A DNA stretch of 40,000 nt from Agarivorans gilvus. GTDB lineage: Bacteria > Pseudomonadota > Gammaproteobacteria > Enterobacterales > Celerinatantimonadaceae. The stretch lies in assembly GCF_001420915.1 (NCBI RefSeq), contig NZ_CP013021.1, forward strand, positions 2,428,361 to 2,468,360, given 5' to 3'. The notes beneath the pieces were generated by a model. That model saw only the letters and a list, made by a program, of their open reading frames with translations. It did no database searches and was not told where the DNA came from. Shown in pieces: positions 2,756-36,979 of the stretch; position 1 is the first letter of the stretch; every line of letters starts with the position of its first letter. The position numbers were made by a program, and so were the translations under genes.

Positions 2756-4141
2756 TTACCACCAAGCCTCGAACTGCGCACCAACAGTAAGTGCTGTGCG
2801 TTTACCAGTTTGAGAAACGTAAGGGTTGGTACGCCATTCCCAGCTTTCGTTTGCGGTTGGGATGTCGTTATAAACAGTAGTCTTGGTATCCAACTCACCA
2901 TAAGTAGCGAAGAATCGAATTACAGGACGGTCCCAGAAATCGCCACCCAAGTGAAGGTTTTGAGCGATAGTGGCTTTCCAAGAAGTATTTGTTCCTGGGT
3001 CTGAGCCCTCATTCACGTCATCGAACTTCATCATGTCATAACCCAGTTCAAGCTGAGTAGACCAACGATCACTCCAGTTGTAGGAGTTACGTAATACAAA
3101 TGAGTTCCAAAGCGTTTTTTCCCATGCCACGCTATTAATTCGACGTTGGCGAGCTTCTTCGTTAAAACTTTGGTATTCACCAGTCCATGCGTATTCAATA
3201 CGGAAGGTATCAGTTAGGTTCTGCATACCTTGGAATACCCAACCTACAGAATCTGTTGGGAGGTATAGCCAATCTTGAGTCATTGAGGTGCTGGTATTGC
3301 GCCCATAGCGAAGTATAAATTGATTAAAATCAGCCCATTGTCCCTGTCTAATAGCAAAACCCAAGGTATAACTGTTTGGTTGATGGAAACTGGCAGATTT
3401 CTCTACATCACCCCAAGACCACTCATACTCAAGGTCAGAGTCAGAGCCGTAGTAGAAGCCATAGTTAGCAAACACATCCATGGCAATATTGTCTGCTAAC
3501 GAAATACCATGTAAGCGAGTTGAAATAGCGTGATAGTTACCGCGAAAGCCCGGCTCACCTTCACACTCCCACGTTTGTTCATTAGTATTAGTACAGAAAT
3601 CTTGACCGGTGACGCTTCCGTTACCTTCTTTAGTGTAGCCGACGTTAAGTTTGGCAAATCCAAGATCCAAGTCATCAATACCCGCACCTACACCATCATT
3701 CATAACCATGTGGTAATCAATGAGTTCTGATTTATAGCGTTGGTAGTAACGCTGGCCAGCCCAGATGGCGGCTTCGGGATTACTTGGAATTACGCCACGG
3801 CCAACAACCCACCATTCGTCAAGGTTGAAGTCTTCTGCATCACTCGCAATATTGGTCTTAATAATCCAATTCATGCCATTCTTAGACACCCCATAGTCAA
3901 GGTGCAGTTCAGCAAAAGTGCCTTCGTTACCAAGCCGGCCAGTCATAGCGCTATTATTACCGGCGGTCTGAATAATATTCATACCATTGTTGGCATTATC
4001 AGATTGACGATTCAGAATTTGGTCATTAGTTGAACCGGTGCCACCTTTGCCGTAACCCCAGAATCGAAATCCATCTAAGTTTTCACCGAATGCCGAATTA
4101 CAGGCAAGAGCGAGGGCTGAAAGTGCAATGACTCTCTTCAT
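2756..4141 (-). CDS. LamB/maltoporin-family carbohydrate porin (candidate agaro-oligosaccharide channel)
   Basis: 461-aa ORF with an N-terminal signal peptide (MKRVIALSALALACNSAFG). Aromatic-rich beta-barrel-like composition and a C-terminus ...FEAWW, as in LamB-type porins. Sits between a GH50 gene and a sugar symporter gene. Confidence 0.75.
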   Translation of the reverse strand: MKRVIALSALALACNSAFGENLDGFRFWGYGKGGTGSTNDQILNRQSDNANNGMNIIQTAGNNSAMTGRLGNEGTFAELHLDYGVSKNGMNWIIKTNIASDAEDFNLDEWWVVGRGVIPSNPEAAIWAGQRYYQRYKSELIDYHMVMNDGVGAGIDDLDLGFAKLNVGYTKEGNGSVTGQDFCTNTNEQTWECEGEPGFRGNYHAISTRLHGISLADNIAMDVFANYGFYYGSDSDLEYEWSWGDVEKSASFHQPNSYTLGFAIRQGQWADFNQFILRYGRNTSTSMTQDWLYLPTDSVGWVFQGMQNLTDTFRIEYAWTGEYQSFNEEARQRRINSVAWEKTLWNSFVLRNSYNWSDRWSTQLELGYDMMKFDDVNEGSDPGTNTSWKATIAQNLHLGGDFWDRPVIRFFATYGELDTKTTVYNDIPTANESWEWRTNPYVSQTGKRTALTVGAQFEAWW

Positions 4142-4180
4142 GCTAATTTCCTTATTTTAAGTTGTTTTGTTTATGAAAAG

Positions 4181-5446
4181 CTAAGCAAGTACCGGATCTT
4201 CTTCCGGCTCAGACTTTTTTTTCTCAGAGCTGAGAGTAAACACAGCCATCACCGTGGCGACCGCCGCGAATAAACCGAAGTAGATATAGCTATAAGGGAA
4301 GCCGTATTGGTCATACATGCTGCCCATAATTGGCGAGGCTATCGCGGTCATTAAATTGTTGACAACCTGAAAGCCAAACATATAAGTGAATGAGTTAACT
4401 TTCCTATCAAACTGCTCAGCAGTGTACGCAAATACCGAAACAATAAGCAGAGGGTTAACAATACCGAACAGCAGTTTAGCCGCAATTGCAAGATAGAGAT
4501 TCTTCTCGCCAAGGCCAGCATAGCCAATCATCAGTAGAAAAGAAGTAATGCCGCATGCGGTGAGAAGTAGACTGCCTTTAGCACCAATTCTCTTGATGAT
4601 ATAAGGCACACCTGCACTAACAAAAAATAAGAAAACCGCAGTCAATCCATCCATATTTGAGCTAAAGCTAATCCCCTCTTCTTGAGTAGGAAAAAAGCTG
4701 ATGAAATAACGCGTAAATTGAGTCATAGACGTCCAGAATACGACTGAAATAGTGCCCGCATAGGTCATAAAGGCCCACATTTTTGGGTTTTTAAGCAGTT
4801 TAATAACATCTTCTTTAGTGATTTTGTCTGCCGAAATAACCTCGTTGTCGACATCATCCAAATGCTTAACTCGTAAAGACCAGCAAAAAAACAACATAAG
4901 AAAGGCCGCCACACTACAGGCAACAAAAATCAAATCAGGGTTAATGTTATAAAGAATACCAGCTAATACAGCAGACACCCCCCATGCAGCAATACCAAAG
5001 CCATTAACTAGGCCAAAGTCGTTGTTGTGACATCTAGCAAATCGATCACTATAGGAGGCAATCACACCGCTACCAGCTTGGAATAACATCCCTAGATATA
5101 GCGAACCGATAACAATCCCTGAAACAAAAGTGGCATCATTAGACAACAACGGCCCATAGACAAAAATATAGAAAGGCCCAATCAACAAACTCAGCACCGA
5201 TATAAAATAAATAAGGTGTTTTTTCATACCCAACTTATCGAGTATGTAACCAAACGCGGGTTTAAATAATACTGCTACCCCTGTTTGCAGACCAAACAAT
5301 ACACCAATTTGAGAACCATCTATGCCTACACGATCGTTCAACCAAACCGCAAACAGCGAGCCTGAGCTTAAAGACCAAAAAAAGTTATAAAAAAAGTACA
5401 TTAGGCACACTTTGCCCATTGCTATACGATTCGAGTCGGTTTTCAT
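4181..5446 (-). CDS. MFS oligosaccharide:H+ symporter, LacY-like
   Basis: The track ORF is 4181-5512. I prefer the internal ATG at 5446 (MKTDSNRIAMGKV...). About 12 hydrophobic segments. The N-terminal region LMYFFYNFFWSL...LFKPAFGYILDKLGMKKHLIYF resembles the LacY family. The start choice is uncertain. Confidence 0.75.
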   Translation of the reverse strand: MKTDSNRIAMGKVCLMYFFYNFFWSLSSGSLFAVWLNDRVGIDGSQIGVLFGLQTGVAVLFKPAFGYILDKLGMKKHLIYFISVLSLLIGPFYIFVYGPLLSNDATFVSGIVIGSLYLGMLFQAGSGVIASYSDRFARCHNNDFGLVNGFGIAAWGVSAVLAGILYNINPDLIFVACSVAAFLMLFFCWSLRVKHLDDVDNEVISADKITKEDVIKLLKNPKMWAFMTYAGTISVVFWTSMTQFTRYFISFFPTQEEGISFSSNMDGLTAVFLFFVSAGVPYIIKRIGAKGSLLLTACGITSFLLMIGYAGLGEKNLYLAIAAKLLFGIVNPLLIVSVFAYTAEQFDRKVNSFTYMFGFQVVNNLMTAIASPIMGSMYDQYGFPYSYIYFGLFAAVATVMAVFTLSSEKKKSEPEEDPVLA

Positions 5447-11022: not shown

Positions 11023-13298
11023 CTAAACACGAAAGCGTTTTGGATACATACTCTGATTTACTCGCTTCGCCGCATCAACCATCGGCTGATAAGGTACGTC
11101 GCTTATCGATACAAAGCCGATGTTGTAGTTTTCGCCATCGAAGGAACGCCCGGTGATCGGCGAGTCAATGTATTGAAAATAATGAGCGCCAACAAAATAA
11201 GGGTTGTCGACCACGGTTTGCATATAGCGCTCAAACATCTGGCCCCGCTCCTGCTGCGAGCAAGCCGTCACCAGCCCCGCATGGAAGAAGCCGGAATCCA
11301 ACGCACCAAAATGGAATTCGCCAATAATACTTGGCATATCAATATCAGCTAGGAAACTCCATGGTTCTGGGTGAAGCCCTTCTTTATAGTAGTTGTAGCT
11401 GACCACATCAACGTGCTTAGCAGCGGCTCTAACCACTTCTGGGTTCATTCCCCAATCAGCAAACCGGCAACCTAAGTACAGGTGATTAGGTAGCTGCTTC
11501 TTCAGCTCCTGCTTGACGACACGGAAGTATTCGCTGGCAAAAGCCTCTAGTAAAAGCGCATAATCTTCGACTTGGGCAGAATTATGAGTAAGACCTTTCA
11601 CTCCTTTAGCCAAATCGGCCCATGAAGCCAGATTGGTTTGCCAACTTTGGTTTAGTGCTTCAATCACCGTATATTTTGTCTTGAGCAACTCAACGAAAAC
11701 GGCCTTAGTCGGACAGGCATCCGCACTGCGTCCTAAAGTATGAATGGCAATACCGTAATGGCCATCAATGCTCCCCATACGGCCCCAACTTTTTTCGTTA
11801 TCAATGAAGATACCAACACACCACGGTGTATCTTTGATTTCATTTTTCACTTGGCTCACGGTAGCCGCGGCGCGCTGACGAAAGCGCGGGTCGAAAGGAT
11901 CAGGTAAGGCTGCCCAAAAGTCATCGCCACTACTAACCTGGTCAAACTCACCAATGATCCAGCCATTGGCAAAGAAGGGAATTCGTTGGTTGTCATAGAA
12001 CTCGGGCGCGGTCCAGTTACCTAGACAAGTGAAGCCCCAGTTCAACATACGGTCTACGGTAACATCACGCCATTTCGCCATGTAATCAGCGCCGTCCGCC
12101 CCATACTTACGCTGTAGGTTTGCTGCATAAAAGCTATAGGTTTCACCTTGCTCTACCGCGCCTTCGAATAACTCACGCATATAACCATAATGCTCGGCTA
12201 AGGGATCATTATAATCCGGTAACCACTGATACATGGCTCGGCGTACCTCGCTGGCCACCTTGGCGGTAGCTAAGGCTGCTCTGGGTACCGTGACTTTTTC
12301 TTTAGAATCCTCGGGGTGACATCATCATCATCACGCTGATTAACCAGCTTATGATCGTAATCTATACCGGTAATGGTCGAGGTGTTAGCCAGACGAATAA
12401 TATCTAATCCAGTCGCAAAATAAGGATACCCCTCAGGATCAACTAAGGACCATTTGCCAGCAATTTTCTCAGTTCTAAAATAGCCACTAGCTTGCTGACG
12501 AGGACCATCAAGATACCCACCAAATTTTGAACGTCCCAGCATAGGGCCTTTGGCCAACTCAGTGAGTTCAGCCTTGGTCACTTCAGCTAATTCCTGCTCA
12601 GAATGGATCTTCTGGGCGTGTTCTTGCTGGGCATTCTGCCCGAAACGGTCAATAATCCCGCTGAGATAATTAGGATCAACCGCGGGGCTAGACTGTAGCC
12701 GAAAGTTGCTTAATAACAGATGGTGATCCAGCAGACTCCCGTGAATGCTCAGCTCAATCTTACTAATTGCACTAAGGTCGATGTTCAATGCTCCCCACAT
12801 CCAAGTAGCGTACACATCCTTGGTCCCCCATGGACAGGGATTAGAGCGTAACCCGCTAGCATAATTACAGGCCCCTCCATGGAGCGTTTCACCTTTTAGT
12901 TCCACCATAAAACTTTGCTGTTTACCTGGTGCAATATTGATACAACGACTGTGCATTTGCCCTTGATGATCAAAGATATTGATGAACATTTGCGTGGAAT
13001 GTTCATCCAAAGCTCGTGCATCGAAAGCGAAACAAAAATTCCCTAAATCACTCCAGTCCCAGTTCTGCTGAGGCTCAATAAATACCGAGGTGTAAAAATG
13101 CTTCTTGCTTAAGGCTTTTATTTCAAGGCATTCAAATCGCAAGTTAGCCTCTACATTACTAAAGCTAAATTCTTCAGGAAGCGTCGATTGAGAAAAATCA
13201 AAGAGAGGGAGCGCTCCTTGCAAGGGCTGATTTGCTGGCTCCATTTGGCTAGTTGTCACAGTTTTACCTCTTCTTATAGAAGGCGCATTCTTTATCAC
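11023..13298 (-). pseudogene. GH50-family agarase paralogue, no signal peptide (cytoplasmic type), interrupted by a 1-nt frameshift near 12313-12316
   Basis: Track ORFs 12270-13298 and 11023-12258 are the N- and C-halves of one GH50-like protein. They are collinear with the 1-2689 and 34152-36979 paralogues. The frame changes in ...DDDDVTP|EDSKEKV... at a G4 run (C4 on the coding strand). One extra C restores VTPEDSKEKVTVPRAALATAKVASEVRRAMYQWLPDY. This may be a sequencing indel rather than a true pseudogene. Confidence 0.8.
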
Positions 13299-15436: not shown

Positions 15437-16063
15437 TCACCCTGCTACATCATAGAAAATCTCATCGGCTCGTCGGTCAAGCTCATTAGTGTGATTTGTT
15501 AGACCTCTCAACCTGTCATCCCAAGTTTCAATAGCCAACAAGATGATTTCTCGTGATGTTGCCTTGTCGATTACACTAGAAGGAGTTACAAACTGTTCAT
15601 TAACTGAATCAGTGTACAAAGATGCTTCTCTTAGCTCGACTAACCCACCAGCTTCCGCCATATCCAATAAGGCTCTAACTCGATCCTTACCAATAGCTTT
15701 AGGCAATCGAGAACCAATGGCGATAACTTCTTGAAGAGCAATGACGTGCTTTGCTCGATGATTGTAGAGCTTATCTTGTCGTTGCTTCTTTACCTCCTCT
15801 GGCTCTCCCATACTGCGAAACATTGCAACTTCAAGCTTGGCGATTTCCTCAATGGCAGATATCGCCAGAAAGACGGGCACATGGTAAATGCCTGACTTGT
15901 AGAGTTGATATGCACTTTCAAAGAGTGAAAGCACATGGTCACAGCCACTATTGAACTCTTCTATTACATTAGCTTTGTTGAAGATGTTTCGACCTTTGCC
16001 GATTGCCTCACCAACAACTATTGCCTTTCTAATTGCTATAGCTTTGTCTATGTCCACCAGCAC
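15437..16063 (-). CDS. AbiV-like abortive-infection protein (HEPN-like helical protein)
   Basis: 208-aa ORF with a GTG start. All-helical composition. Blocks AISAIEEIAKLEV and LYNHRAKH resemble my recollection of the AbiV family. Divergent from the RexAB-like pair. This is a recollection-level assignment only. Confidence 0.45.
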   Translation of the reverse strand: MLVDIDKAIAIRKAIVVGEAIGKGRNIFNKANVIEEFNSGCDHVLSLFESAYQLYKSGIYHVPVFLAISAIEEIAKLEVAMFRSMGEPEEVKKQRQDKLYNHRAKHVIALQEVIAIGSRLPKAIGKDRVRALLDMAEAGGLVELREASLYTDSVNEQFVTPSSVIDKATSREIILLAIETWDDRLRGLTNHTNELDRRADEIFYDVAG

Positions 16064-16204
16064 ACCCAGCCCATTATTGATAGTTTTCTAAGTATGAATT
16101 ACATTACTATTCTCTGGCCCAATTCATATTCAAGGTTAGAGAAATGTATACTATAAACTATTATGCAACATGTTATTAAGAAGTAATATCAAAAGGGACA
16201 GTTA

Positions 16205-17236
16205 ATGAAGCTACGCTATTTCGGCTATCACTTGCGTAAGTTTGACACTCAAAAGACGTTTCTATTCAACATCAAGTCAATCGTTGACGCATTCATTAGC
16301 TCTAACAATATGGAGCTAAAGAGCAGCTTTAAGCGTGGTGATGACAAACTATATTTGACCCACATTGCGGGACAAAAGAACGTCTATTACTTCGTCCGTA
16401 CCAGTGACGATGATCTAATCAAACGTATCAACGAGCAAAACCTAACGGTCAGTGACATCACAGATAAGCTATCTGCTAATGAAAAGGTCGCTTATGTATC
16501 GTATGTGTATTTGAATGACACAGACAACATCATGGCATGTGCAAGTAGCACTAGCTGTCCTCGATTTGATGATTTTGCGGATTACATCAACGAGTTGTTT
16601 AACAAGGTCGGTCTTAAAAACTATGACTTCTTCATTGATGCTCTGACATCAAACAGTAACAAAGCCGATTTGATGAATATGGAAATGGTCAACAGTGTGT
16701 ATGTCGATGTTGCAGCAGATAAAAGCCTTGGGAAGTTGATAGCTAAAGAACTGACGGGCAACCCAAATGCTTCACTAGGAAACTTCCGTATTACGATTGA
16801 GCCAACAGGATCGAATCTAAAGCAAACATTTGTTAATATGCTGGCCCGCTTAGCACCTACAGGTAAAGCAAAAAACACTCAAGGTGTCATTCGAATCGGT
16901 GCTAAAGCGAAGCACAACGAGCTAAAAGGACAGTTGAATGACTATTGGTTGGATAATGAGAACAACCTAACAGACAACCTAAACCCTAAAGCTAAGACGA
17001 AGTTACCAGATCAGATCACGGCAAAGCACGATGAGAACTCGTATCTGGACAACCTGTATAAAGCATACGTTAAGAACAAGAACCTGAAATCTGAAGCGGA
17101 TACATTACTGGCGACGTATGCAGACAAGACACAGTTTGCAAAGAAAGCCAAAAATCAAGTAACTCAAGCTGATGCTGAACCAGCAAATGACGAACCGACA
17201 ACTTTAGTACCACTAAACTCTGAAGCGACTAGCTAA
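16205..17236 (+). CDS. RexA-like protein (sensor half of a RexAB-type abortive-infection pair) with a long Lys/Asn-rich C-terminal extension
   Basis: The N-terminal 210 aa align by eye with lambda RexA as I recall it. Ours: YYFVRTSDDDLIKRINEQNLTVSDITDKLSANEKVAYVSYVYL; lambda: FLFTKTNDKSLVQKINRSKASVEDIKNSLADDESLGFPSFLFV. Ours: DLMNMEMVNSVYVDVAAD; lambda: DVMHMHFIGRTTVKVEAK. Ours: FRITIEP; lambda: LDIVIKP. Tightly linked to the next gene (one base between its stop and the next ATG). Confidence 0.6.
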   Translation: MKLRYFGYHLRKFDTQKTFLFNIKSIVDAFISSNNMELKSSFKRGDDKLYLTHIAGQKNVYYFVRTSDDDLIKRINEQNLTVSDITDKLSANEKVAYVSYVYLNDTDNIMACASSTSCPRFDDFADYINELFNKVGLKNYDFFIDALTSNSNKADLMNMEMVNSVYVDVAADKSLGKLIAKELTGNPNASLGNFRITIEPTGSNLKQTFVNMLARLAPTGKAKNTQGVIRIGAKAKHNELKGQLNDYWLDNENNLTDNLNPKAKTKLPDQITAKHDENSYLDNLYKAYVKNKNLKSEADTLLATYADKTQFAKKAKNQVTQADAEPANDEPTTLVPLNSEATS

Positions 17237-17237
17237 A

Positions 17238-17702
17238 ATGACCAGAACTGAGATTGCAAAACTAAAGAAAGTTATATGGTTCACGCCTCTACTTGGTGTG
17301 ATCTTTGGCTTTGCATATCTTGGCCTCAAAGCTCATTTTGATTGGGCTTTTGGCTTCACTGAAGTCCGTACACTATCAACAATAGTTGCAGGGTTCAGCT
17401 TCACGATGCAGGGTTTCCTAGCTGCTATCGCTGCATTTCTCTTTTCATTGCAGAAGTACCGATTCTTCAAGAGATGGGTGGAAGATGGTAACTCTGAAGT
17501 TTTCTTTACTCTCTTTAAAGTTGCATTCGTTTGTCTGTTCATCACCTTTGGGTTCAGCTTATTCGTGTTCACATCTCAAGGGCAAGGCTTTGCATTCAAA
17601 GCAATGATGATGTCTGTAACCAACAACATCATCCAGCTTTGCATAATAACCATTATCATCATGGACAAGGTGTTTAAAGCTCGTGAGAGTGACGTCACCT
17701 AA
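17238..17702 (+). CDS. RexB-like small 4-TM membrane protein
   Basis: 154 aa with four clear hydrophobic helices. Same size and topology as lambda RexB (144 aa, 4 TM). Its ATG lies one base after the stop of the RexA-like gene. Confidence 0.55.
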   Translation: MTRTEIAKLKKVIWFTPLLGVIFGFAYLGLKAHFDWAFGFTEVRTLSTIVAGFSFTMQGFLAAIAAFLFSLQKYRFFKRWVEDGNSEVFFTLFKVAFVCLFITFGFSLFVFTSQGQGFAFKAMMMSVTNNIIQLCIITIIIMDKVFKARESDVT

Positions 17703-18749: not shown

Positions 18750-20012
18750 TTATTTGCAGCTAATAAGTGGAATATGTCGCCAATCCGTCGTGTATTGAGG
18801 CGTGAGCATATCCCTTCGCATATGCCACTTGGGGCTGATACCTTGTGAGCCTAGAAACATTGTGCCACTGCCGTAGCGTTGATTTAATGCATCAACAGCT
18901 TTCATTAGTTCTGGTCGGCCCGGCTTTGCCGTAAACATATCCAGTTGTTGATACTGTTCATCAATTAAATCTATAAGGCCCACGCCGACTTTGTAGTATT
19001 TGATACCTGGAATAAATAGTTGGGGTATTGCTTGTGAGACCAGCTGACTAATCACAATGGTATCGTTAGTTGCACAAGCGGGCCGCAGCAACTGCTTAAA
19101 GCCTCGACTGATACCATCATCAAACGGCGAGTTATGTGCAAATATTAAAATCGCACCGACTACGCTACCTTGCTCTCTTGCTTTTAAACATGCACAGCTC
19201 ACATGCAGTGAAAATGCTTGCATCAACGAGTGTAGCTCCAGTATTCGTTGGCCAGTGCTTCTCGTTGAGAAAATTTGCTGCTTATTCGCTCGCGCTTCAT
19301 CCCATGATTTTGCGGATACACCGTTAAGTTCGAGTATCGTTCTCTCCATCTCCACGCTGAAATGCTGCTTAGCAAGCTTCGGTGGCATATTCGCCAACTT
19401 GTATCCGGTTGTTATTCCCATGTCTTTGAGACGTATGCTTAACTTTCGGCCCACTCCCCACACATCGGACACACACATTTGAGATAAAATACGGTCTCTT
19501 TGTTCATTATGCTCAATCACACAAACCCCATTGAAACCAGGTAAACGTTTAGCAGCATGATTGGCGACCTTACACAGCGTCAGCGTTTTTCCAAACCCCA
19601 CACAAACGGGTAAACGCACTTCTTTCCAAACAGTTCGACGGATTTGCTTTCCCAGAACCTCAAGCGGGGGCAGAGCCTCACAGGCATTTGATACATCTAT
19701 GAAGGTTTCATCAATACTGTATACATGTTGTCTTGGAGCAAATGCGCCAATGATTTGCATCATATGCATCGATAAATCTGCATATAGCTCATAGTTTGAC
19801 GAGCATACAATGACACCTTTTTTTTCGCACAATGATTTAATCTGGAAAAAAGGTTTAAAGCGCTCGATACCAATAGCTTTAGCCAAACGATTTACAGCAA
19901 CCACACAACCGTCGTTGTTGCTCAGTACTATGATTGGTTTGTTGCGCCAATCAGGGCGAAACACCGCTTCCGCTGAACAATAAAAACTATTGGCATCAAC
20001 AAGCGCAAACAT
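18750..20012 (-). CDS. umuC: Translesion DNA polymerase V catalytic subunit UmuC (Y-family)
   Basis: 420 aa. The N-terminus MFALVDANSFYCSAEAVFRPDWRNKPIIVLSNNDGCVVA is the canonical UmuC/Y-family start. Its start codon overlaps the umuD stop (ATGA). Confidence 0.9.
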   Translation of the reverse strand: MFALVDANSFYCSAEAVFRPDWRNKPIIVLSNNDGCVVAVNRLAKAIGIERFKPFFQIKSLCEKKGVIVCSSNYELYADLSMHMMQIIGAFAPRQHVYSIDETFIDVSNACEALPPLEVLGKQIRRTVWKEVRLPVCVGFGKTLTLCKVANHAAKRLPGFNGVCVIEHNEQRDRILSQMCVSDVWGVGRKLSIRLKDMGITTGYKLANMPPKLAKQHFSVEMERTILELNGVSAKSWDEARANKQQIFSTRSTGQRILELHSLMQAFSLHVSCACLKAREQGSVVGAILIFAHNSPFDDGISRGFKQLLRPACATNDTIVISQLVSQAIPQLFIPGIKYYKVGVGLIDLIDEQYQQLDMFTAKPGRPELMKAVDALNQRYGSGTMFLGSQGISPKWHMRRDMLTPQYTTDWRHIPLISCK

Positions 20013-20419
20013 TAAAGCAGTTTCAGCAAACGAGACGGCCGGTGACAGCGTATAGAGCGGATAACGACGCCTTCTACAGTAAACCTATCACAACTACTGA
20101 CAGCTACTGGGCCATAGTGTTCATTGGCTGATAGGAGCATACGTCTTGATTTATCGATAATCTTACACACAAACTCGCCGTTGATATTTGCGACAATGAC
20201 ATCACCACTCTCTACATGGACGTGACGGTCAACAATCAATACATCCCCATCGTGTATACCGCTACCCAACATTGAGTCTCCGGACGCTAGACCGATAAAT
20301 GTGGCTGATGGATGCTCAATAAGTAAGTCATCTAAACTCAGTGGGAGTTGCGAATATTCAGTCGCGGGGGATTCAAAACCTGTAAGGCCAGCACTCGCTA
20401 GAATAGGGATTACTTTCAT
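20012..20419 (-). CDS. umuD: UmuD, S24 LexA-like self-cleaving peptidase subunit of Pol V
   Basis: 135 aa. Has an Ala-Gly cleavage-type site near the N-terminus (ASAGLTGF), Ser nucleophile context SGDSM, and a downstream Lys (FVCKII). Sits directly upstream of umuC. Confidence 0.9.
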   Translation of the reverse strand: MKVIPILASAGLTGFESPATEYSQLPLSLDDLLIEHPSATFIGLASGDSMLGSGIHDGDVLIVDRHVHVESGDVIVANINGEFVCKIIDKSRRMLLSANEHYGPVAVSSCDRFTVEGVVIRSIRCHRPSRLLKLL

Positions 20420-24766: not shown

Positions 24767-25081
24767 TTAAGCCAACGGTGACTTGTTATGTCTTTGAACA
24801 ATATGATTGATGTTTTTAATACCTAGCTCCATCTTTTGACGCGCCGATGAGTTTGCAGAGTGCACTTTCATTTTGGGTGGGACAAATTGATTAAGCAATG
24901 CCTGCTCTTCTATCCAAAGCACAACATCATATCCAGTGCCGTGGTCATCATTTCCGAGATCATGGTCTAAGCTAATTTCTGTTACTTCACCTGTTTTCAG
25001 CAATTCTATGGCTTCCTCCGGCCAATATACTCTTACCCACCCTTCAGGTGTCTCTCGTTCATCATCTAGGTAAACTTTCAT
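24767..25081 (-). CDS. Receiver-like small protein resembling the cyclic-phosphate-processing receiver (cREC) family
   Basis: 104 aa. MKVYLDDERETPEGWVRVYWPEEAIELL...ISLDHDLG matches my recollection of the MK.fLDDeR.P.GW...SLDHDLG pattern of these phage/island-borne receiver-fold proteins. RBS GGAG upstream. Confidence 0.5.
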   Translation of the reverse strand: MKVYLDDERETPEGWVRVYWPEEAIELLKTGEVTEISLDHDLGNDDHGTGYDVVLWIEEQALLNQFVPPKMKVHSANSSARQKMELGIKNINHIVQRHNKSPLA

Positions 25082-25266
25082 GTCTTTACTCCATGTTCAC
25101 ACCCGACAGAGCATGTCGTAGCATGGTGAATTTTAATAGCCTGATATACTTTTACCAATCCACAAAAATCAGGAAAAATTAAAAGTTATGCAACGTACGA
25201 CGCCTCCCCAACACAAATTAAAACATGACTACCTTTAAAATATACCTCGCTAGTATGATATCGAAT

Positions 25267-25346
25267 GCGTTACGCAACTTGCGTAACGCAACTTGCGTAA
25301 CGCAACTTGCGTAACGCAACTTGCGTAACGCAGCTTGCGCAATTGC
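25267..25346. repeat. Tandem repeat, 14-bp unit GCGTAACGCAACTT, about 5.7 copies; fully self-complementary array
   Basis: Copies start at 25267 (variant GCGTTACGCAACTT), then 25281, 25295 and 25309 (identical), then 25323 (GCGTAACGCAGCTT), with a partial GCGCAATTGC at 25337. The array alternates ACGCAA and TTGCGT half-sites with 1-nt spacers. It can therefore pair in many registers (for example TTACGCAA-c-TTGCGTAA). Confidence 0.9.
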
Positions 25347-25497
25347 TATTTCCTTTAATTTTCAATTTCTTAAAGTAAAGTTTGCGCACATCACAAGCTG
25401 AATTGTGCTGCTGTATATAACAGCTAAATCACGAAAACGTCGCCGTCAACGAAGTAGAGAAAACCAACCTTTACATCGTTACTCATTACGTCTGTGG

Positions 25498-26520
25498 CTA
25501 GAAAATATTTAGGCCAAATATGTCTTTGATATCAAAGAGCACTTTATCTGTCTTTTCTCGTGAAACTTGACTTCCTGCCTTCAAAATGTCGATTAGTTGT
25601 GCCTTATCATTTAAGTACACGGCTCTTTTTTGTCGAATAGGCCGGAGCATTTCTTGTAAGCATTCTTCTAGGATTCTCTTCGTCACGCCGTCACCTAGTC
25701 CTCCTCGTTGATAGTGTTGCTTTAATTGTTGGACATAGCTTTCATCAGAATGAAAAGCATCTAAATAAGTAAACACCACATTCCCTTCTATCTTGCCGGG
25801 GTCTTCAATTCTTACATGGTGAGGGTCGGTATACATAGACTTGACCGCTGCGGTGATTTCCTTTTCACTCGCTCCTAGATTAATAGTGTTCCCCATCGAT
25901 TTAGACATCTTATTTTTTCCATCGGTGCTGGGTAAGCGTGGCGCTTTGCTTAACAATGGCTGACATTCATTGAGAACATTGCGCCCGGCTAATGCGTTTA
26001 TCTTCCGCACGATTTCATTGGTTTGTTCAAGCATTGGTAATTGGTCGTCACCAACGGGGACTAATGTTGCGTTAAACCCAGTGATATCCGCGGCCTGAGA
26101 GATGGGATACGTTAAGAAACCTGCGGGGATGGAGCGCTCAAATCCTTTATTCTGAATTTCACTTTTAACTGTAGGATTACGCTCTAATCGACTAATAGTA
26201 ACTAGGTTACTGTAATACATAGTGAGTTCGGCAAGCGCTGGTAATTGTGACTGAAGGCATATAGTCGTTGCTGATGGGTCTATCCCTACAGCGAGGTAAT
26301 CCGCCACCACATTTAGAATATTCGATGACACTTTTTGAGGGTGAAGGGCATTGTCTGTCAGGCCTTGCATATCAGCAACAAGAATGGTTTGTTCATGGTG
26401 AGCTTGTAAAGCGACACGCTGCTTTAAAGAACCAACGTAATGGCCTAGGTGTAATGGGCCAGTCGCTCTATCACCGGTTAAAATAACCTCTGATTTATCC
26501 GTTTTATGTTGTGTATTCAT
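25498..26520 (-). CDS. trpS: Tryptophan--tRNA ligase, TrpRS-II type paralogue (auxiliary trpS)
   Basis: 340 aa. HIGH-type motif GPLHLGHYVG and KMSKS motif present. Overall it resembles the Deinococcus TrpRS-II type (TGDR.TG.LHLGH, LVADMQGLTD, VPVGDDQLPMLEQT) rather than the housekeeping gammaproteobacterial TrpS. RBS GAGGAG upstream. Confidence 0.9.
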   Translation of the reverse strand: MNTQHKTDKSEVILTGDRATGPLHLGHYVGSLKQRVALQAHHEQTILVADMQGLTDNALHPQKVSSNILNVVADYLAVGIDPSATTICLQSQLPALAELTMYYSNLVTISRLERNPTVKSEIQNKGFERSIPAGFLTYPISQAADITGFNATLVPVGDDQLPMLEQTNEIVRKINALAGRNVLNECQPLLSKAPRLPSTDGKNKMSKSMGNTINLGASEKEITAAVKSMYTDPHHVRIEDPGKIEGNVVFTYLDAFHSDESYVQQLKQHYQRGGLGDGVTKRILEECLQEMLRPIRQKRAVYLNDKAQLIDILKAGSQVSREKTDKVLFDIKDIFGLNIF

Positions 26521-26623
26521 CGGTATATCTCCTCGTCAAATAAATTGGCCACTGGAGATACAAAAGAGATGACATTCTTAGCTACCTACCAGCAGCATAA
26601 GAATGTAAGAATTCTGTGCCGCT

Positions 26624-26677
26624 CTAATGAGAGCGCCACCAAAGAATAGATAATGTAGGCATTGGAATATTATTCAT
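26624..26677 (-). promoter_or_regulatory. Candidate trpL-like leader peptide ORF (MNNIPMPTLSILWWRSH*) of a Trp-sensing attenuator for the auxiliary trpS
   Basis: 17-codon ORF about 100 nt upstream of trpS with tandem TGG TGG codons (26636-26641), ending WWRSH-stop. E. coli TrpL ends GWWRTS-stop. The Trp codons lie inside the stem GGCGCTCT-catt-AGAGCGGC. Downstream is a 12-bp bulged hairpin ACATTCTTAtGCT...AGCTAAGAATGT followed by CATCTCTTTTG. No clear SD precedes the ORF; a possible -35/-10 pair (TTGTCT-N17-TAGATT, 26684-26712) would make it nearly leaderless. Confidence 0.5.
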
Positions 26678-27288
26678 GACAGGAATCTAACAATAATCAA
26701 GTTAGGAGACAAGCGTTTGAGCGCTCCCTTAGCATCTATGTAGGCAACTCGTTGGCTTTACTCTAAGTTTAAGCGTCAAATTGCTTCTTCGGTTATAAAC
26801 TAGCTACCAATGATAAAAGTACTGTGTTTTTAATGTTATCGAGAACAAACATTAGATGATGAAATTTCCTGGCAACTCGACCTGAATTTTGTCCGTTTGT
26901 AATTACAGTGCGGGTTACAGAGCGACATGTGTAGTGAATTACTGGATTCAGCCTGTCAAAATGGCGAGTCTTTGAGCACTTTGAAGGCCCGTATGAGAGA
27001 CCCAATAATTTTTACCCTTTTCCGGCGTAGTGTTTTCACCTAGGCCGTAAAACACAGCACCAATTACTGAATTATTCCAATGTCCCCTCAAGTAAATTCC
27101 CGCGTAATTTACACACATATAGAAATGATTCATCAGACAAATTGTCTACTGACTGTGTAAGCGAGGAGTGCTTATCTGATGTATTTAGGTGCCTGTTTGG
27201 TAAGGTCTGAAAACTTTATATAAACGCTACCCTTCAAAAGAGACCGTTAAAGCAGTTTTTCGAATACACTTAACTTTGAGTTCCGCAC

Positions 27289-32803: not shown

Positions 32804-33894
32804 ATGACCTTAGCAATTAAAGAAATATGCACCCGTTTATTTAAGGTGCCATTGGCTGAGATTCTCTCTGATGCCAAACATGGCGATCACGACCATTTCG
32901 AGCTAATCACATGTACCATTACTTTAGAAGACGGCAGCAGCGGCACCGGCTACACCTATACCGGCGGCAAAGGCGGCTATGCCATCAAAGCCATGCTAGA
33001 CCATGACTTGCGCCCAATGCTATTAGGTAAAGACGCCAGTGCCATTGAAGACATTTATGATGAGATGGAGTGGCACATTCACTATGTAGGCCGTGGGGGA
33101 TCTCTTCCTTTGCTATGTCTGCAGTAGATATTGCACTGTGGGATCTAAAGGGCAAACGCGAAAATATGCCTCTTTGGAAAATGGCAGGTGCGAGCAGTGA
33201 TCGATGCAAAGCCTACTGTGGTGGTATCGATTTGAACTTTTCCTTAGAAAAGCTGTTGAATAATATTCAGGGCTACTTGGATAGTGGCTTTAATGCCGTC
33301 AAAATTAAGGTCGGCCAAGCCGATATGAGCAAAGACATCGAACGGATCCGTGCTGTTCGCCAACTTATTGGTCCCGAGACTATCTTTATGATTGACGCCA
33401 ATTACTCGCTCTCGGTTGAGCAAGCCATTGCACTATCCAAAGCCGTTGAAGACTGTGATATCACTTGGTTTGAAGAGCCAACAATTCCTGACGACTACCT
33501 AGGTTTTGCCAAGATTGCGGATGCCACCCGTATTCCTTTAGCCATGGGTGAGAACCTACATACCATTCATGAGTTTGGCTATGCCTTTGAGCAAGCAAAG
33601 CTGTCTTTCATTCAGCCAGACGCATCAAACTGTGGAGGCGTTACCGGCTGGTTGCGAGCAGCTAAGCTGTCTCAGGATTATGACATCCCCGTGTGTTCCC
33701 ATGGTATGCAAGAATTGCATGTAAGTTTAGTGTCTTCACGCCCAAATGCAGGATGGTTAGAAGTACATAGCTTTCCAATTGACCAATACACCAAGCGCCC
33801 ATTAGTAGTTGAAGATCATCTAGCCATTGCACCCAGTACCCCAGGCATCGGTGTTGAGTTCGACTGGGATAAGCTCGCCCAATACCAAGTTTAA
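32804..33894 (+). pseudogene. Enolase-superfamily cycloisomerase (candidate 3,6-anhydro-L-galactonate cycloisomerase), split by a 1-nt frameshift at the G5 run 33095-33099
   Basis: Track ORFs 32804-33127 and 33070-33894 are the capping and barrel halves of one mandelate-racemase/muconate-lactonising-type protein. One extra G restores ...[26 protein letters not shown].... Context (ALDH, kdgK, eda, agarases) supports the anhydrogalactonate role. Probably a homopolymer sequencing error. Confidence 0.75.
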
Positions 33895-34048: not shown

Positions 34049-34151
34049 AAATACTATTGATCATCCAATAACCAAATAAATTAACCAAAGGGGAGCTTTG
34101 GTCAGCCTATGGGGCATAAGCCCCAGCCTGGCTCTAAGGAATGAAATAAGC

Positions 34152-36979
34152 ATGAGAATAGACAAATTACCTTTCGCGGGAGCATTACTCGCCATCCTGA
34201 TTGGAGCCTACGGATGCACATCCAATTTAAACAATGCCCCTTCAACCAAGCAGACCGGCAACAGCCAACTGCCAGACTTTGAGAGTAGAGCATTTTTCAG
34301 TTCAGTGCTTACTGAGCATGCCACTGCAACAATGGTAACTGACTCAGGAGTGATGGCGGGTAAGCATGCGCTTCAGCTAGAGTTTGAGGGAGTTAATGTG
34401 GCCGAGCAATTTAGTCGCTGGCCCAATGCTAAATTTCACCCCGCAGTCCAAGCTTGGGATTGGAGCGCCTACCAAAGCCTTAGCATCGATTTGACCAACC
34501 CCGACATGCAAGCCGCGACGGTCATTTTAAAGCTCGCAGACAAACTCGGCGTAAAAGGCTCGCCGCCTAATCAGCTCAATTACCAGTTTAGGATCCCAGC
34601 TCAGCGAACTCAGCAGTTAACCCTAGAGTTCGATGGTGGAACCAAGCAGCGCCCCGGATATTGGGGTGGCACTCAGCTTGATCTCAGCTCCATTTTAGAG
34701 TTGCAAATTTTCGTTCAAGGTCCGATCAAGGAGCAGCAGGTTATCCTAGATAACCTACGCCTAAACAAAGCTAGCTCTGAGCAGAGCGTTGTCGATACCA
34801 AGACCATTATTCGGAAAATCCCCACGCTGAAAAACCTCACTAGCTCTAGCCAAGGGCATAGCAACCTAGTCTCTTATGAGCGCAGTGAAGGTACCATCAT
34901 TACTGAACTCACAAATGGTATGGAAGGCCTGCTCGACATCCGCTTTTCAGCTAACACTGACTACCCTAATGTGACCTTTAAAGAAGCCTACCCTTGGGAT
35001 TGGAGCGAGTATCAAGAGCTTAGCCTAGCCTTCGATATTGATAACCAGCAAAACCAAGATTTGCAGTTATTCGTTCGTGTTGACGACGCCGAGGACCAGC
35101 GCTGGGGAGGCTCAGCCGACGGAGTAAACAATAGTCTCTCAGCAATGGTTACACTGCCAGCCAACAGCAGCGGTAGTTACTATCTACCGCTAAAGCAATT
35201 GAACCAGCAGATAAATGCTGGCATGACCGGCTTACCTCCTAAACCAAATTATCTGGCTGAGGCAATAAAGTATGGTTGGGGGCAACGCCAATTGGACCTC
35301 AGCAACATCGTATCTTTTCAGCTCTATCTGCAACAACCCAAGCAAGACGCCCACCTGCAACTAAAACGTCTGCGCTTAATCCCCGACCTTGACTCAGAGC
35401 AACAAGGCTTTGCACAAATCGTCGATAAGTTTGGTCAATACACCGGTTATGACTGGCCCAAGAAGGTTCATAGCGATGAAGAACTGCGCACCATGGGCCA
35501 CGTGGCTAAGTTGTCACTCAAGTCTTCATCAGCGATGCCGCAAAGAAGCAAATTTGGCGGATGGCTTGAAGGCCCTAAAAGCAAAGCCAGCGGACACTTT
35601 AGAACGGCGAAGCTAGGTGATAAATGGAGCTTGGTCGATCCCTTGGGTTACCCTTTCTTCGCCACCGGCTTAAGCAATATTCGCCTAGATGATAGCTATA
35701 CCCTGACCGGTTACGATTCCTCAGACCAAACCAAGAGCATGCTATCACCAGTGCGGGCCAGCATGTTCACTTGGTTGCCAGAGAGGGGCGAACGGCTAGC
35801 GGATGGCTTCTCCTACGCAGAAAAACTGCATAGCGGAGCGCAACAACAGGGTGAGATCTTCAGTTTTTACGCCGCCAATCTACAGCGAAAGTATGGTGGC
35901 TCACTTGAGCAAGCACTGAACAGCTGGCAACAGGTAACCTTAAGCAGAATGCAAGATTGGGGTTTTACTAGCTTAGGAAATTGGACTGACCCGGCTTTTT
36001 ATAACAACGGCTCCATCGCCTATGTAGCGCATGGGGAGATCACAGGAGAGCATGCTCGCATCGCCACGCCAAACGACTATTGGGGCGCAATGCATGACCC
36101 ATTTGATCCGGTATTTCGTCAAAGTGCGCGAGCGATGGCCCAAGGCTTAAGCGGACAAATTAACCGAAACGATCCATGGTTGATTGGCATCTTTGTCGAC
36201 AACGAGCTGAGCTGGGGCAATCAGCAAAGTGACGCGAAGCACTTTGGCTTGGTCGCAGCAGTATTAGCCAAGGATCAAAGGAACAGTGCAGCCAAGACCG
36301 CCTTCACCGACTACATCAAAAGTAAGTACTGGACGATAGAAGACCTAAACCAAAGTTGGCAAACAACGCTCACATCCTGGGTGCAGTTTGAGCGGGGCTT
36401 CGATTATCACTCTGAGCTGCATCAAGCAATGCGACGCGACTACTCGGAGTTATTGTACTTATTTGCTGAGAAGTACTATGCGATTGTTCGCGCAGAGCTG
36501 AAGAAGGAGCTGCCCAATCATCTATATCTAGGCTCCAGATTTGCTGACTGGGGCATACCGAAGAAGTCCTGCATGCGGCATCACTCTACGTGGATGTATT
36601 GAGCTTCAACCACTATAGCGATGACTTTTCATCTAGCGGTCCGTGGGCCCAACTGGCGGAACTGGATAAACCGGCCATGGTGAGTGAGTTTCATTTTGGT
36701 GCGACTGATATGGGGATGTTTGCCGGAGGCGTAGTATCGGCAAAAGATCAGGAGCAGCGAGCGGCGAAATACTCGCACTATATGCGCGGAGTCGTCGCCC
36801 ACCCCAACTTTGTCGGAGCTCAGTGGTTTCAGTATATCGATGCTCCCCTTACCGGGCGCGCGTGGGATGGAGAAAACTACAACAACGGTTTTGTCTCAGT
36901 GAGTGACTCACCCTACCCACAACTGGTCGAAGCGGCCAAGAAATTTAATCAGCAGTTATATCAAAGCCGCTTCAAATAA
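34152..36979 (+). pseudogene. GH50-family beta-agarase lipoprotein with tandem N-terminal non-catalytic modules, interrupted by a 1-nt frameshift near 36558-36561
   Basis: I prefer the ATG at 34152 (MRIDKLPFAGALLAILIGAYGCTS, lipobox) over the track TTG at 34098. Track ORFs 34098-36602 and 36590-36979 join if one base is added in ATACC-GAAGAA, giving RFADWGIPEEVLHAASLYVDVLSFNHY. That spacing is identical to the two paralogues (GVTPEIARGAAPYVDV, GMNPEVVRAAAKHVDV). Confidence 0.8.

Follow-up and report, generated by a model that had tools for sequence, protein, structure and literature searches.

Among described systems, the closest to the one reported here is trpS2 (STM4508) of Salmonella, whose tandem-Trp leader was noted in a 2026 preprint that listed trpS2 and pheST as controlled by attenuation. 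The Salmonella TrpS2 protein is more abundant in a miaA mutant, in which decoding of UGG is impaired, and the authors attributed this to relaxed attenuation at the tandem-UGG leader; moreover, in two transcriptome studies the level of trpS2 mRNA followed that of the trp operon. In a transposon study of S. Typhimurium, trpS and trpS2 were both non-required, unlike other synthetase genes, which indicates that the two are redundant. In Streptomyces, attenuators have been predicted 5' of auxiliary trpS genes and auxiliary indolmycin-resistant tryptophanyl-tRNA synthetases (TrpRS) have been reviewed, and pheST has been cited as a gamma-proteobacterial precedent for synthetase attenuation. Here we describe a locus of this kind from Agarivorans gilvus, located in a stretch of 40,000 nucleotides (contig NZ_CP013021.1, positions 2,428,361 to 2,468,360; hereafter the window, to which all coordinates refer), where a TrpRS gene, trpS2, lies behind a leader open reading frame (ORF) with tandem Trp codons. 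The features form a module of approximately 1.6 kb on the minus strand, i.e., a sigma-70-type promoter, a leader ORF predicted to be leaderless, approximately 100 nt of structured RNA, and a synthetase without Trp residues. We conclude that the leader probably exerts ribosome-mediated attenuation in response to Trp-tRNA and thereby regulates a back-up synthetase, most likely as a combined transcriptional and translational switch.

Compared to Salmonella trpS2, the window gene encodes an enzyme of the same family (64% identity) and has the same hairpins 1:2, 3:4 and 5:6; the Salmonella leader has 19 codons and ends in RWWLPS-stop, with a promoter-like hexamer approximately 7 nt 5' of its ATG (by eye). 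The Salmonella hairpin is GC-rich (GUAGCCGCC-GAAA-GGCGGCUAC), whereas that of the window is AU-rich and extended, with a displaced U run; the window leader also has a longer (13-bp) alternative pairing for the anti-Shine-Dalgarno (anti-SD) sequence, and the genomic context differs. The Salmonella small RNA IsrQ, located beside STM4508, was considered as a possible leader transcript and excluded, as it is on the opposite strand. The E. coli trpL leader is similar to the window leader in being short and ending in WWR-(T/S)-S/H-stop, in having tandem UGG codons in segment 1, and in forming 1:2, 2:3 and 3:4 alternatives of similar energies. Unlike trpL, however, the window leader controls a synthetase rather than biosynthesis genes, its ORF is not preceded by a Shine-Dalgarno (SD) sequence, it has an additional SD-masking helix tied to the terminator arm, its terminator is weak, and it does not match the Rfam Trp leader. 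Streptomyces trpRS1/trpS2 likewise represent auxiliary TrpRS genes behind Trp-codon leaders with ribosome-mediated attenuation, but their leader sequences are unrelated to that of the window. The E. coli pheM-pheST operon is also a synthetase operon in which leader-peptide attenuation senses the cognate tRNA; as compared to the trpS2 module, it senses another amino acid, controls a housekeeping enzyme and is not a mobile module. The kind of system is therefore known, and the window holds a well-conserved marine case of it; SD masking coupled to a terminator arm, a leaderless leader and a Trp-free enzyme are possibly new details.

The leader ORF (MNNIPMPTLSILWWRSH followed by a TAG stop; 26624-26677) has 17 codons and ends 103 nt before the trpS2 ATG, in agreement with an initial annotation that had placed a 17-codon ORF with tandem Trp codons approximately 100 nt upstream of the gene. 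The two UGG codons (26636-26641), which would represent the sensor, are codons 13 and 14. For comparison, we used the 80 best-related loci from reference genomes, which provided 79 distinct upstream regions and 77 distinct leaders for alignment. The top relative in a protein search was Agarivorans sp. QJM3NY_25 (97% protein identity), followed by enzymes with 83 - 87% identity from many Vibrio, Alteromonas, Paraglaciecola, Shewanella, Salinimonas and Planctobacterium; related loci were also found in Photobacterium and Psychromonas. An ORF with 16 to 19 codons and the end WW(R/C)S-x-stop is located approximately 155 nt 5' of trpS in 79 of these 80 loci, and in the one locus for which no WW leader was called, the upstream sequence is too short. 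TGGTGG is unchanged in all 77 aligned leaders and the codons around it are variable. Given this conservation, the WW leader does not represent a chance occurrence, and a short upstream ORF with tandem regulatory codons, as expected for a trp-type attenuator, is present.

The Arg codon that follows the tandem Trp codons (CGC) is replaced by a Cys codon (UGC) in 9 sequences, each of which carries a compensating G-to-A change in segment 2 of the RNA. This indicates that the constraint at this position is on an RNA helix and not on the peptide, and it bears on whether the leader peptide may sense free L-tryptophan in the ribosome, similar to TnaC, instead of charged tRNA-Trp being sensed. While members of the Vibrio/Alteromonas group show fair conservation of the C-terminal FFWWRS, as free-Trp sensing would predict, the Arg is exchanged only together with the RNA, and both peptide length and upstream residues vary widely among homologues. 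TnaC relies on a Trp12-Asp16-Pro24 spacing, which the window leader lacks. The Salmonella response to loss of the tRNA modification i6A37, which is needed for efficient UGG decoding, also fits codon reading, and sensing of free Trp thus seems scarcely credible to us.

Upstream of the leader ATG, a -35-like hexamer TTGTCT (26707-26712) and a -10-like hexamer TAGATT (26684-26689, 6 nt 5' of the ATG) represent the predicted module promoter. The pattern TTGnnn-17-nAnnnT followed by the leader ATG was observed in 77 of the 79 upstream regions, as compared to 2.6 in shuffled sequences, and in these 77 loci the -10 hexamer and the ATG were mostly separated by 6 nt (66 loci), with gaps of 7 nt in 10 loci and of 5 nt in a single locus. 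An SD-like 4-mer 5' of the leader ATG was found in none of the 79 regions. Based on this spacing and on the lack of an SD-like motif, we predict that the leader ORF is translated from a leaderless or near-leaderless mRNA starting within 1 - 2 nt of the ATG, and it may thus be a case of a leaderless leader peptide in gamma-proteobacteria. A consensus scan of the window did not call the module promoter, and no TrpR operator was seen in it by eye, although no formal scan for such an operator was made.

The 180-nt leader folds into three hairpins (z = -3.0 as compared to shuffles). Hairpin 1:2 (26616-26639) is formed by GUGGCGCUC (26639-26631) and GAGCGGCAC (26624-26616), with the leader stop in its loop and 3' arm; in the alignment of 77 leaders, to which all following values on helix conservation refer, 99.5% of cells are paired and one pair is changed on both sides (C-G to U-A, in 9 sequences). 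The previous placement of TGGTGG (26641-26636) in the 5' arm of a stem thus applies to its 3' part, which lies inside GUGGCGCUC/GAGCGGCAC. In the alternative antiterminator (26591-26623), AGCGGC[A] of segment 2 pairs with [U]GCUGCU of segment 3i, and AGAAU pairs with AUUCU. The 2:3 core is paired in 98.5% of cells with one-sided changes only (G-U to A-U or G-C), and the full antiterminator (AGCGGCA/UGCUGCU plus AGAAU/AUUCU) in 91.2%, with both-sided changes in 4 pairs. Hairpin 3:4 (26572-26606; ACAUUCUUAUGCUGCUGG-UA-GGUAGCUAAGAAUGU) is terminator-like and part of the minimum free energy (MFE) structure; 90.6% of cells are paired and 7 pairs show both-sided changes. Its stem has 15 pairs (9 + 6) rather than the 12 given initially. 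Directly 3' of this hairpin (26606-26572) is CAUCUCUUUUGUAU, and the U-rich tail, CAUCUCUUUUG, occupies positions 26561-26571. Overall, 1:2, 2:3 and 3:4 represent mutually exclusive alternatives, each of them at least 90% paired, and the regulatory codons are part of segment 1.

The remainder of the leader concerns access to the trpS2 start. The 5' half of segment 5 (UAUCUCCAGUGGC, 26548-26560) represents an anti-SD, and its UAUCUCC pairs with the SD region GGAGAUA (26526-26532), which is thereby masked in hairpin 5:6; this helix, an addition to the initial annotation, is nearly invariant and paired in 96.5% of cells. Segment 5 as a whole can also pair with the stretch made up of segment 3i, the loop and segment 4i, giving a long-range helix of 13 bp (3-loop-4i:5; GCUGCUGGA-A-GGUA with UAUCUCCAGUAGC) with 96.9% of cells paired and a U-A to C-G replacement in 7 sequences. 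Conservation within the leader is highest for the anti-SD, the SD and this 3:5 helix, and the RNAalifold consensus structure consists of hairpin 1:2 and the core of the 3:5 helix. Direct pairing of segments 4 and 5 was considered and rejected, as it is limited to GCUA/UAGC and CUG/CAG with a bulge and is absent in the window. A search of Rfam yielded no match in the window at gathering thresholds, and the leader gave only two chance-level hits at E values up to 10.

The specific alternative pairings of the initial annotation, in which three AUUCUU-containing segments could each pair with a single UAAGAAUGU, were largely wrong. Of these pairings, only the third is supported; the second was paired in only 77.6% of cells, a value that was reached in 393 of 500 shuffles.

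As a side observation, leaders of the Vibrio chagasii/V. atlanticus/V. crassostreae type (L045, L047-L050, L058, L059, L061) carry an insertion of approximately 10 - 14 nt after the terminator 3' arm (alignment A1, columns 142-166), which provides a second copy of the GAAUGUC/AUGUC motif of that arm; these leaders also have the Arg-to-Cys codon change with its compensation in segment 2.

More distant copies of the gene (approx. 61 - 64% identity) were found on an E. coli IncFIB plasmid and in Klebsiella, Salmonella, Aeromonas, Proteus and Salinivibrio, all of them with WW leaders (MNRNVVISHLRRWWLPA, MNRNVIVTYPRLWWLPA, MNTKRSNATQRHLRWWLPS, MNMTSFNHNYWWCCF, MNTRPRSLRSIQNWWRFI and MKTVFDTHTLLIFRTQWWRAL) whose ends are more divergent than those of the marine leaders. 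In these six copies, a GC-rich hairpin with a U-rich tail is located 3' of the WW leader, segment 2 repeats the 3' arm of this hairpin, which implies that 2:3 competes with 3:4, and the SD hairpin follows. The hairpin of the E. coli plasmid copy (AAAGCCGCC-GGAA-GGCGGCUUU, followed by GUUGUUU) was the only one of the enteric type that was scanned, and was called as a terminator. Hairpin 3:4 of the window has the same position as the enteric hairpins and has a GCCGCCGGAAGG core in common with the E. coli plasmid and Klebsiella copies; the marine leaders retain the same core (GCUGCUGGAAGGUAGC as compared to GCCGCCGGAAGGCGGC) but are extended by AU-rich sequence, and their U run is displaced. Moreover, inspection by eye of the three Enterobacteriaceae copies suggests that the segment pairing with the SD is again also complementary to the 5' arm and loop of the hairpin, e.g., CUUUCGGC to GCCGAAAG for Salmonella and to GCCGGAAG for Klebsiella. 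A WW leader was absent in an A. baumannii copy and in a Rhizobium plasmid copy, indicating that the leader is not universal in this enzyme family. The E. coli copy is located on plasmid pB379_2 (NZ_CP090457.1, positions 3830-5005; L081) between IS26 and IS1, where it adjoins a diguanylate cyclase gene, and similar copies are present on Shigella and Klebsiella plasmids.

We also assessed the energies of the competing helices. The values for the window and the medians of the 77 leaders were -13.9 and -13.7 kcal/mol for hairpin 1:2, -11.0 and -11.0 kcal/mol for the antiterminator, -17.7 and -14.1 kcal/mol for hairpin 3:4, -12.5 and -15.8 kcal/mol for the 3-loop-4i:5 helix, and -6.9 and -6.9 kcal/mol for the 5:6 core. 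When segment 1 was masked as if by a ribosome and hairpin 3:4 was forbidden, the antiterminator represented the MFE structure, at a mean cost of 3.0 kcal/mol; in these models, the antiterminator cost and the helix energies resemble those of a classical attenuator. The MFE structure of the full-length leader contains 3:4 and 5:6, with a probability of approximately 0 that the SD is unpaired. Conversely, when the transcript ends just past segment 5, and the SD is thus absent, the MFE structure holds the 3:5 helix in 61 - 63 of the 77 leaders. We thus infer from folding models that the leader may act as a folding-history switch, in which the presence of either 3:4 or 2:3 at the time segment 5 emerges would set the fate of the anti-SD.

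Under this hypothesis, with ample charged tRNA-Trp the ribosome would reach the UAG in hairpin 1:2, leaving segment 2 either covered or base-paired to segment 1. Hairpin 3:4 would then form, and transcription may terminate at the U-rich tail; in transcripts that are read through, the anti-SD of segment 5 would pair with the SD and trpS2 would remain off. If charged tRNA-Trp is scarce, e.g., due to Trp starvation, poor UGG decoding or inhibition of the housekeeping TrpRS as putative physiological triggers, the ribosome would stall at UGG-UGG and cover segment 1, such that segment 2 and the downstream AGAAU could pair with segment 3 as the antiterminator and hairpin 3:4 would not form. The freed loop and 3' arm, followed by segment 3i, would then capture the anti-SD in the 13-bp helix, leaving the SD open. 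As synthesis of TrpRS2 would be independent of Trp-tRNA, the enzyme could be made and charging restored. The leader would thus represent a compact natural case of termination control and SD masking within one RNA element.

Attenuation is supported by the conservation of the leader, the helices and their energies, the homologues, the presumed order of folding, the type and Trp-free composition of the enzyme, the predicted promoter with its leaderless layout, and the increase of Salmonella TrpS2 in the miaA mutant, and the layout of a ribosome-mediated attenuator that was proposed initially is borne out by a WW leader conserved across genera and by helices with compensatory changes. Overall, comparative evidence and the experiments on the Salmonella homologue provide good support for both attenuation and an auxiliary role of the synthetase. 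Several observations weigh against our interpretation. Support for the helices consists largely of conservation, with both-sided changes coming from few lineages; attenuation in the host organism is predicted from sequence and folding only; the promoter is weak, matching the consensus at only 8 of 12 positions, and the start of transcription is itself a prediction; and the housekeeping trpS of the host genome is presumed. The terminator scan, applied to the window and to two Vibrio loci, did not call hairpin 3:4 in any of them, its U tract being non-canonical. In addition, with a stalled-ribosome mask at equilibrium the SD never opens (median unpaired probability 0.00 - 0.03, even without 3:4), and the translational step thus rests on kinetic reasoning.

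These last observations concern the relative weight of termination and SD masking. The U run of the window begins 6 nt past the stem of hairpin 3:4, and the pyrimidine/U-rich tract that had been described after this hairpin is indeed U-rich without yielding a terminator call. Given the AU-rich extension of the hairpin, the displaced U run and the lack of a call, we consider hairpin 3:4 a poor terminator and termination in the marine lineage uncertain, while masking of the SD is probably important there. One alternative is an attenuator that acts on transcription only, with 3:4 as the terminator, 5:6 as a constant damper of translation and the 3:5 complementarity without a regulatory role. The classical logic and energies of 1:2, 2:3 and 3:4, the terminator at the same position in the E. 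coli plasmid copy (with the other enteric-type hairpins being similar and having U-rich tails), and an SD that is closed in every equilibrium state modelled are in line with this alternative. It appears unlikely, however, as the marine tail is a poor terminator, with the aligned U run approximately 17 - 18 nt from the hairpin 3:4 stem in leaders of the L045/L047 type, and as the 13-bp 3:5 helix is maintained with compensation, which would be hard to explain if it was useless; a version with a different sequence is seen by eye in enteric leaders.

Conversely, marine leaders may use attenuation of translation only, with constant read-through and with stalling deciding between capture of the anti-SD and its pairing with the SD. 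Such a scheme is compatible with the lack of terminator calls in the window and the two Vibrio loci, with the particular conservation of the anti-SD, the SD and the 3:5 helix, and with the 3:5 MFE structure of the nascent RNA in most leaders. On the other hand, a U-rich tail is nevertheless present, a terminator was called for the homologous hairpin of the E. coli plasmid copy, and the antiterminator of the stalled state occupies segment 3i, such that opening of the SD would need an extra strand exchange; we regard this scheme as somewhat less probable still than control of transcription alone, and favor the combined switch.

The gene itself (25498-26520) encodes a complete class I TrpRS of 340 amino acids, with HLGH from residue 24 and KMSKS from residue 204, that matches TIGR00233 (tryptophan--tRNA ligase; 230.9 bits, cutoff 176.75) as well as PF00579. 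Among solved structures, D. radiodurans TrpRS II is the nearest (1YI8/2A4M; E = 7.6e-105, 54% identity over 321 residues), as compared to 27 - 30% identity (E values of approx. 1e-27 to 1e-32) for the E. coli (approx. 27%) and Bacillus enzymes; the PDB ranking agrees with these identities and the Bacillus numbering is consistent with the literature. By sequence comparison, the enzyme is thus of the TrpRS-II type, as initially annotated, with housekeeping TrpRS I being more distant than D. radiodurans TrpRS II. With D. radiodurans TrpRS II (1YI8, 1YIA, 1YID, 2A4M) it shares Gln at the position of Bacillus His43, a SQAAD motif and the lack of Trp in the aligned region. Regulation of the D. radiodurans enzyme is not known to involve a leader peptide. 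D. radiodurans TrpRS II binds nitric-oxide synthase and is induced after radiation; an annotation scan of the window found no nitric-oxide synthase gene.

The window enzyme contains no Trp residues, where the Trp content of the remaining window proteins would predict approximately 6.8. Trp was likewise absent in 120 of 120 homologues among the matches listed and in 7 of 8 more distant copies (i.e., the six with WW leaders and the Rhizobium and A. baumannii copies without), the Salmonella copy having one Trp. A Trp-free enzyme induced by a shortage of Trp-tRNA fits a rescue role. This role would not apply if trpS2 was the only trpS of the cell, i.e., a housekeeping gene autoregulated by its leader, as might be considered for a host whose second trpS is presumed. 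The approximately 27% identity to the E. coli-type enzyme (with PDB matches in agreement) speaks against this, as does the fact that the 80 best relatives include just a single further Agarivorans locus, in which the gene is at a different place. Furthermore, some Vibrio genomes have two copies, complete Klebsiella, Aeromonas and Proteus chromosomes with a WW-leader copy hold a second TrpRS-like locus, and Salmonella has both trpS and trpS2. We therefore consider a sole, housekeeping trpS2 very improbable, and retain the view of an auxiliary gene.

A role of trpS2 in indolmycin resistance, as suggested initially, is hypothetical. In Bacillus TrpRS, His43, Asp132 and Gln147 have been reported as determinants of indolmycin action, with H43N conferring resistance. 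The corresponding residues of the window enzyme are Gln52, Asp145 and Gln160 (and Gln142 for Met129), i.e., His43 is replaced and the two other contacts are kept. The absence of a His43 equivalent is compatible with low affinity for indolmycin, and is the sole point in favor of resistance. Pseudoalteromonas luteoviolacea makes indolmycin and encodes a Trp-tRNA ligase inside the respective cluster. In the window, gene annotation revealed no indolmycin biosynthetic genes near trpS2, and a cluster of this type was ruled out, as the neighbors are sugar/agar catabolism and defense genes.

A more far-reaching proposal, which we put forward tentatively and consider doubtful, is that the marine leader is a two-output kinetic switch with a leaderless ORF, on a mobile rescue cassette selected by marine TrpRS inhibitors, e.g., indolmycin of Pseudoalteromonas, and spread among Vibrionales and Alteromonadales. 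The 5' arm, the loop and the first bases of the 3' arm of the terminator would here be a decoy for the anti-SD, such that antitermination and unmasking of the SD would be a single event. If resistance was indeed conferred, the modules would represent a reservoir of inducible resistance against antibiotics that target TrpRS, e.g., indolmycin and chuangxinmycin. In numerous marine and enteric bacteria, a spare TrpRS-II synthetase appears to be passed on together with a dedicated sensor for the charging of tRNA-Trp.

The distribution of the module among genomes also suggests mobility. A blastn comparison with Agarivorans sp. QJM3NY_25 found approximately 92 - 93% identity over 26764-25126 and nothing outside; this common module (25122-26764) comprises the promoter, the leader, trpS2 and approximately 370 nt of 3' flank. 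In QJM3NY_25 it is located between carboxypeptidase and oxidoreductase genes, with flanks unrelated to the window. As the two Agarivorans genomes thus have only the same module of approximately 1.6 kb in common, in unrelated contexts, the trpS2 module appears to move independently and to have spread horizontally, consistent with the acquisition proposed initially. Promoter-leader DNA is approximately 82% identical between orders, and two module copies each were found in Vibrio sp. MA40-2 (L017 and L032, on chromosomes 1 and 2) and Vibrio sp. HN007 (L029 and L067). No mobility gene or terminal repeats were found at the module, no tRNA was found in the window, and none of the ORFs scanned had an integrase-family Pfam match. 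Carriage by phages was considered and rejected, as matches in phage collections were mostly large, bacterial-looking records and a single IMG/VR contig does not show a phage vector. That contig, which is classed as viral (IMGVR_UViG_3300009428_004071, 2840-4020; L089), has the module at 84% identity with an intact leader, MKYIPTLTSFFFWWRSN.

Most of the window represents an agar/sugar utilization region (with LamB, LacY-like, GH2, GH43-like, agarase-CBM and KDPG aldolase genes, among others), which is interrupted at approximately 15.4 - 27.3 kb by genes for AbiV, RexA/RexB, UmuDC, two nucleases and a cREC-REC protein as well as by the trpS2 module. The module has Ldh_2, ADH, mannitol dehydrogenase, KDPG aldolase and agarase-type genes as neighbors on one side and the AbiV, RexAB, UmuDC and nuclease genes on the other. 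Its description as island-borne holds in that it is at the edge of an insertion with defense genes, but it is a small module independent of that insertion.

Several features adjoin the module on its 3' side. A terminator scan identified a terminator-like hairpin, CGTTGACGGCGACG followed by TTTTCGTGAT, 46 nt past the trpS2 stop (25438-25451), and just 3' of trpS2 a 14-nt unit, TGCGTAACGCAACT, is present in approximately six tandem copies (25252-25356). These units are self-complementary, and the array could form a long hairpin; far fewer copies are present in Agarivorans sp. QJM3NY_25, the only genome that has this 3' flank in common with the window. The 3' boundary of the module adjoins a gene for a 104-amino-acid protein consisting of a cREC_REC domain only (cyclic-phosphate-processing receiver; 24767-25081), after which come two small ORFs without a family match. 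The same insertion of approximately 12 kb carries abortive-infection genes, i.e., an AbiV homologue (PADLOC, E = 2e-70) beside RexA/RexB (E = 3e-33 and 1e-11) at 15437-17702, and a UmuD-like (Peptidase_S24) and UmuC-like (IMS) pair on the minus strand (18750-20419). Elsewhere in the window, an MR_MLE (enolase-superfamily) gene at 32804-33894 is split into overlapping ORFs of 107 and 274 amino acids that divide the N-terminal domain, which may represent a frameshift, a pseudogene or a sequencing error. Finally, two adjacent minus-strand ORFs at 11023-13298 contain an agarase-CBM and a GH42-like domain, jointly resemble in architecture a single 834-amino-acid protein encoded at 34098-36602, and may be a disrupted paralogue.

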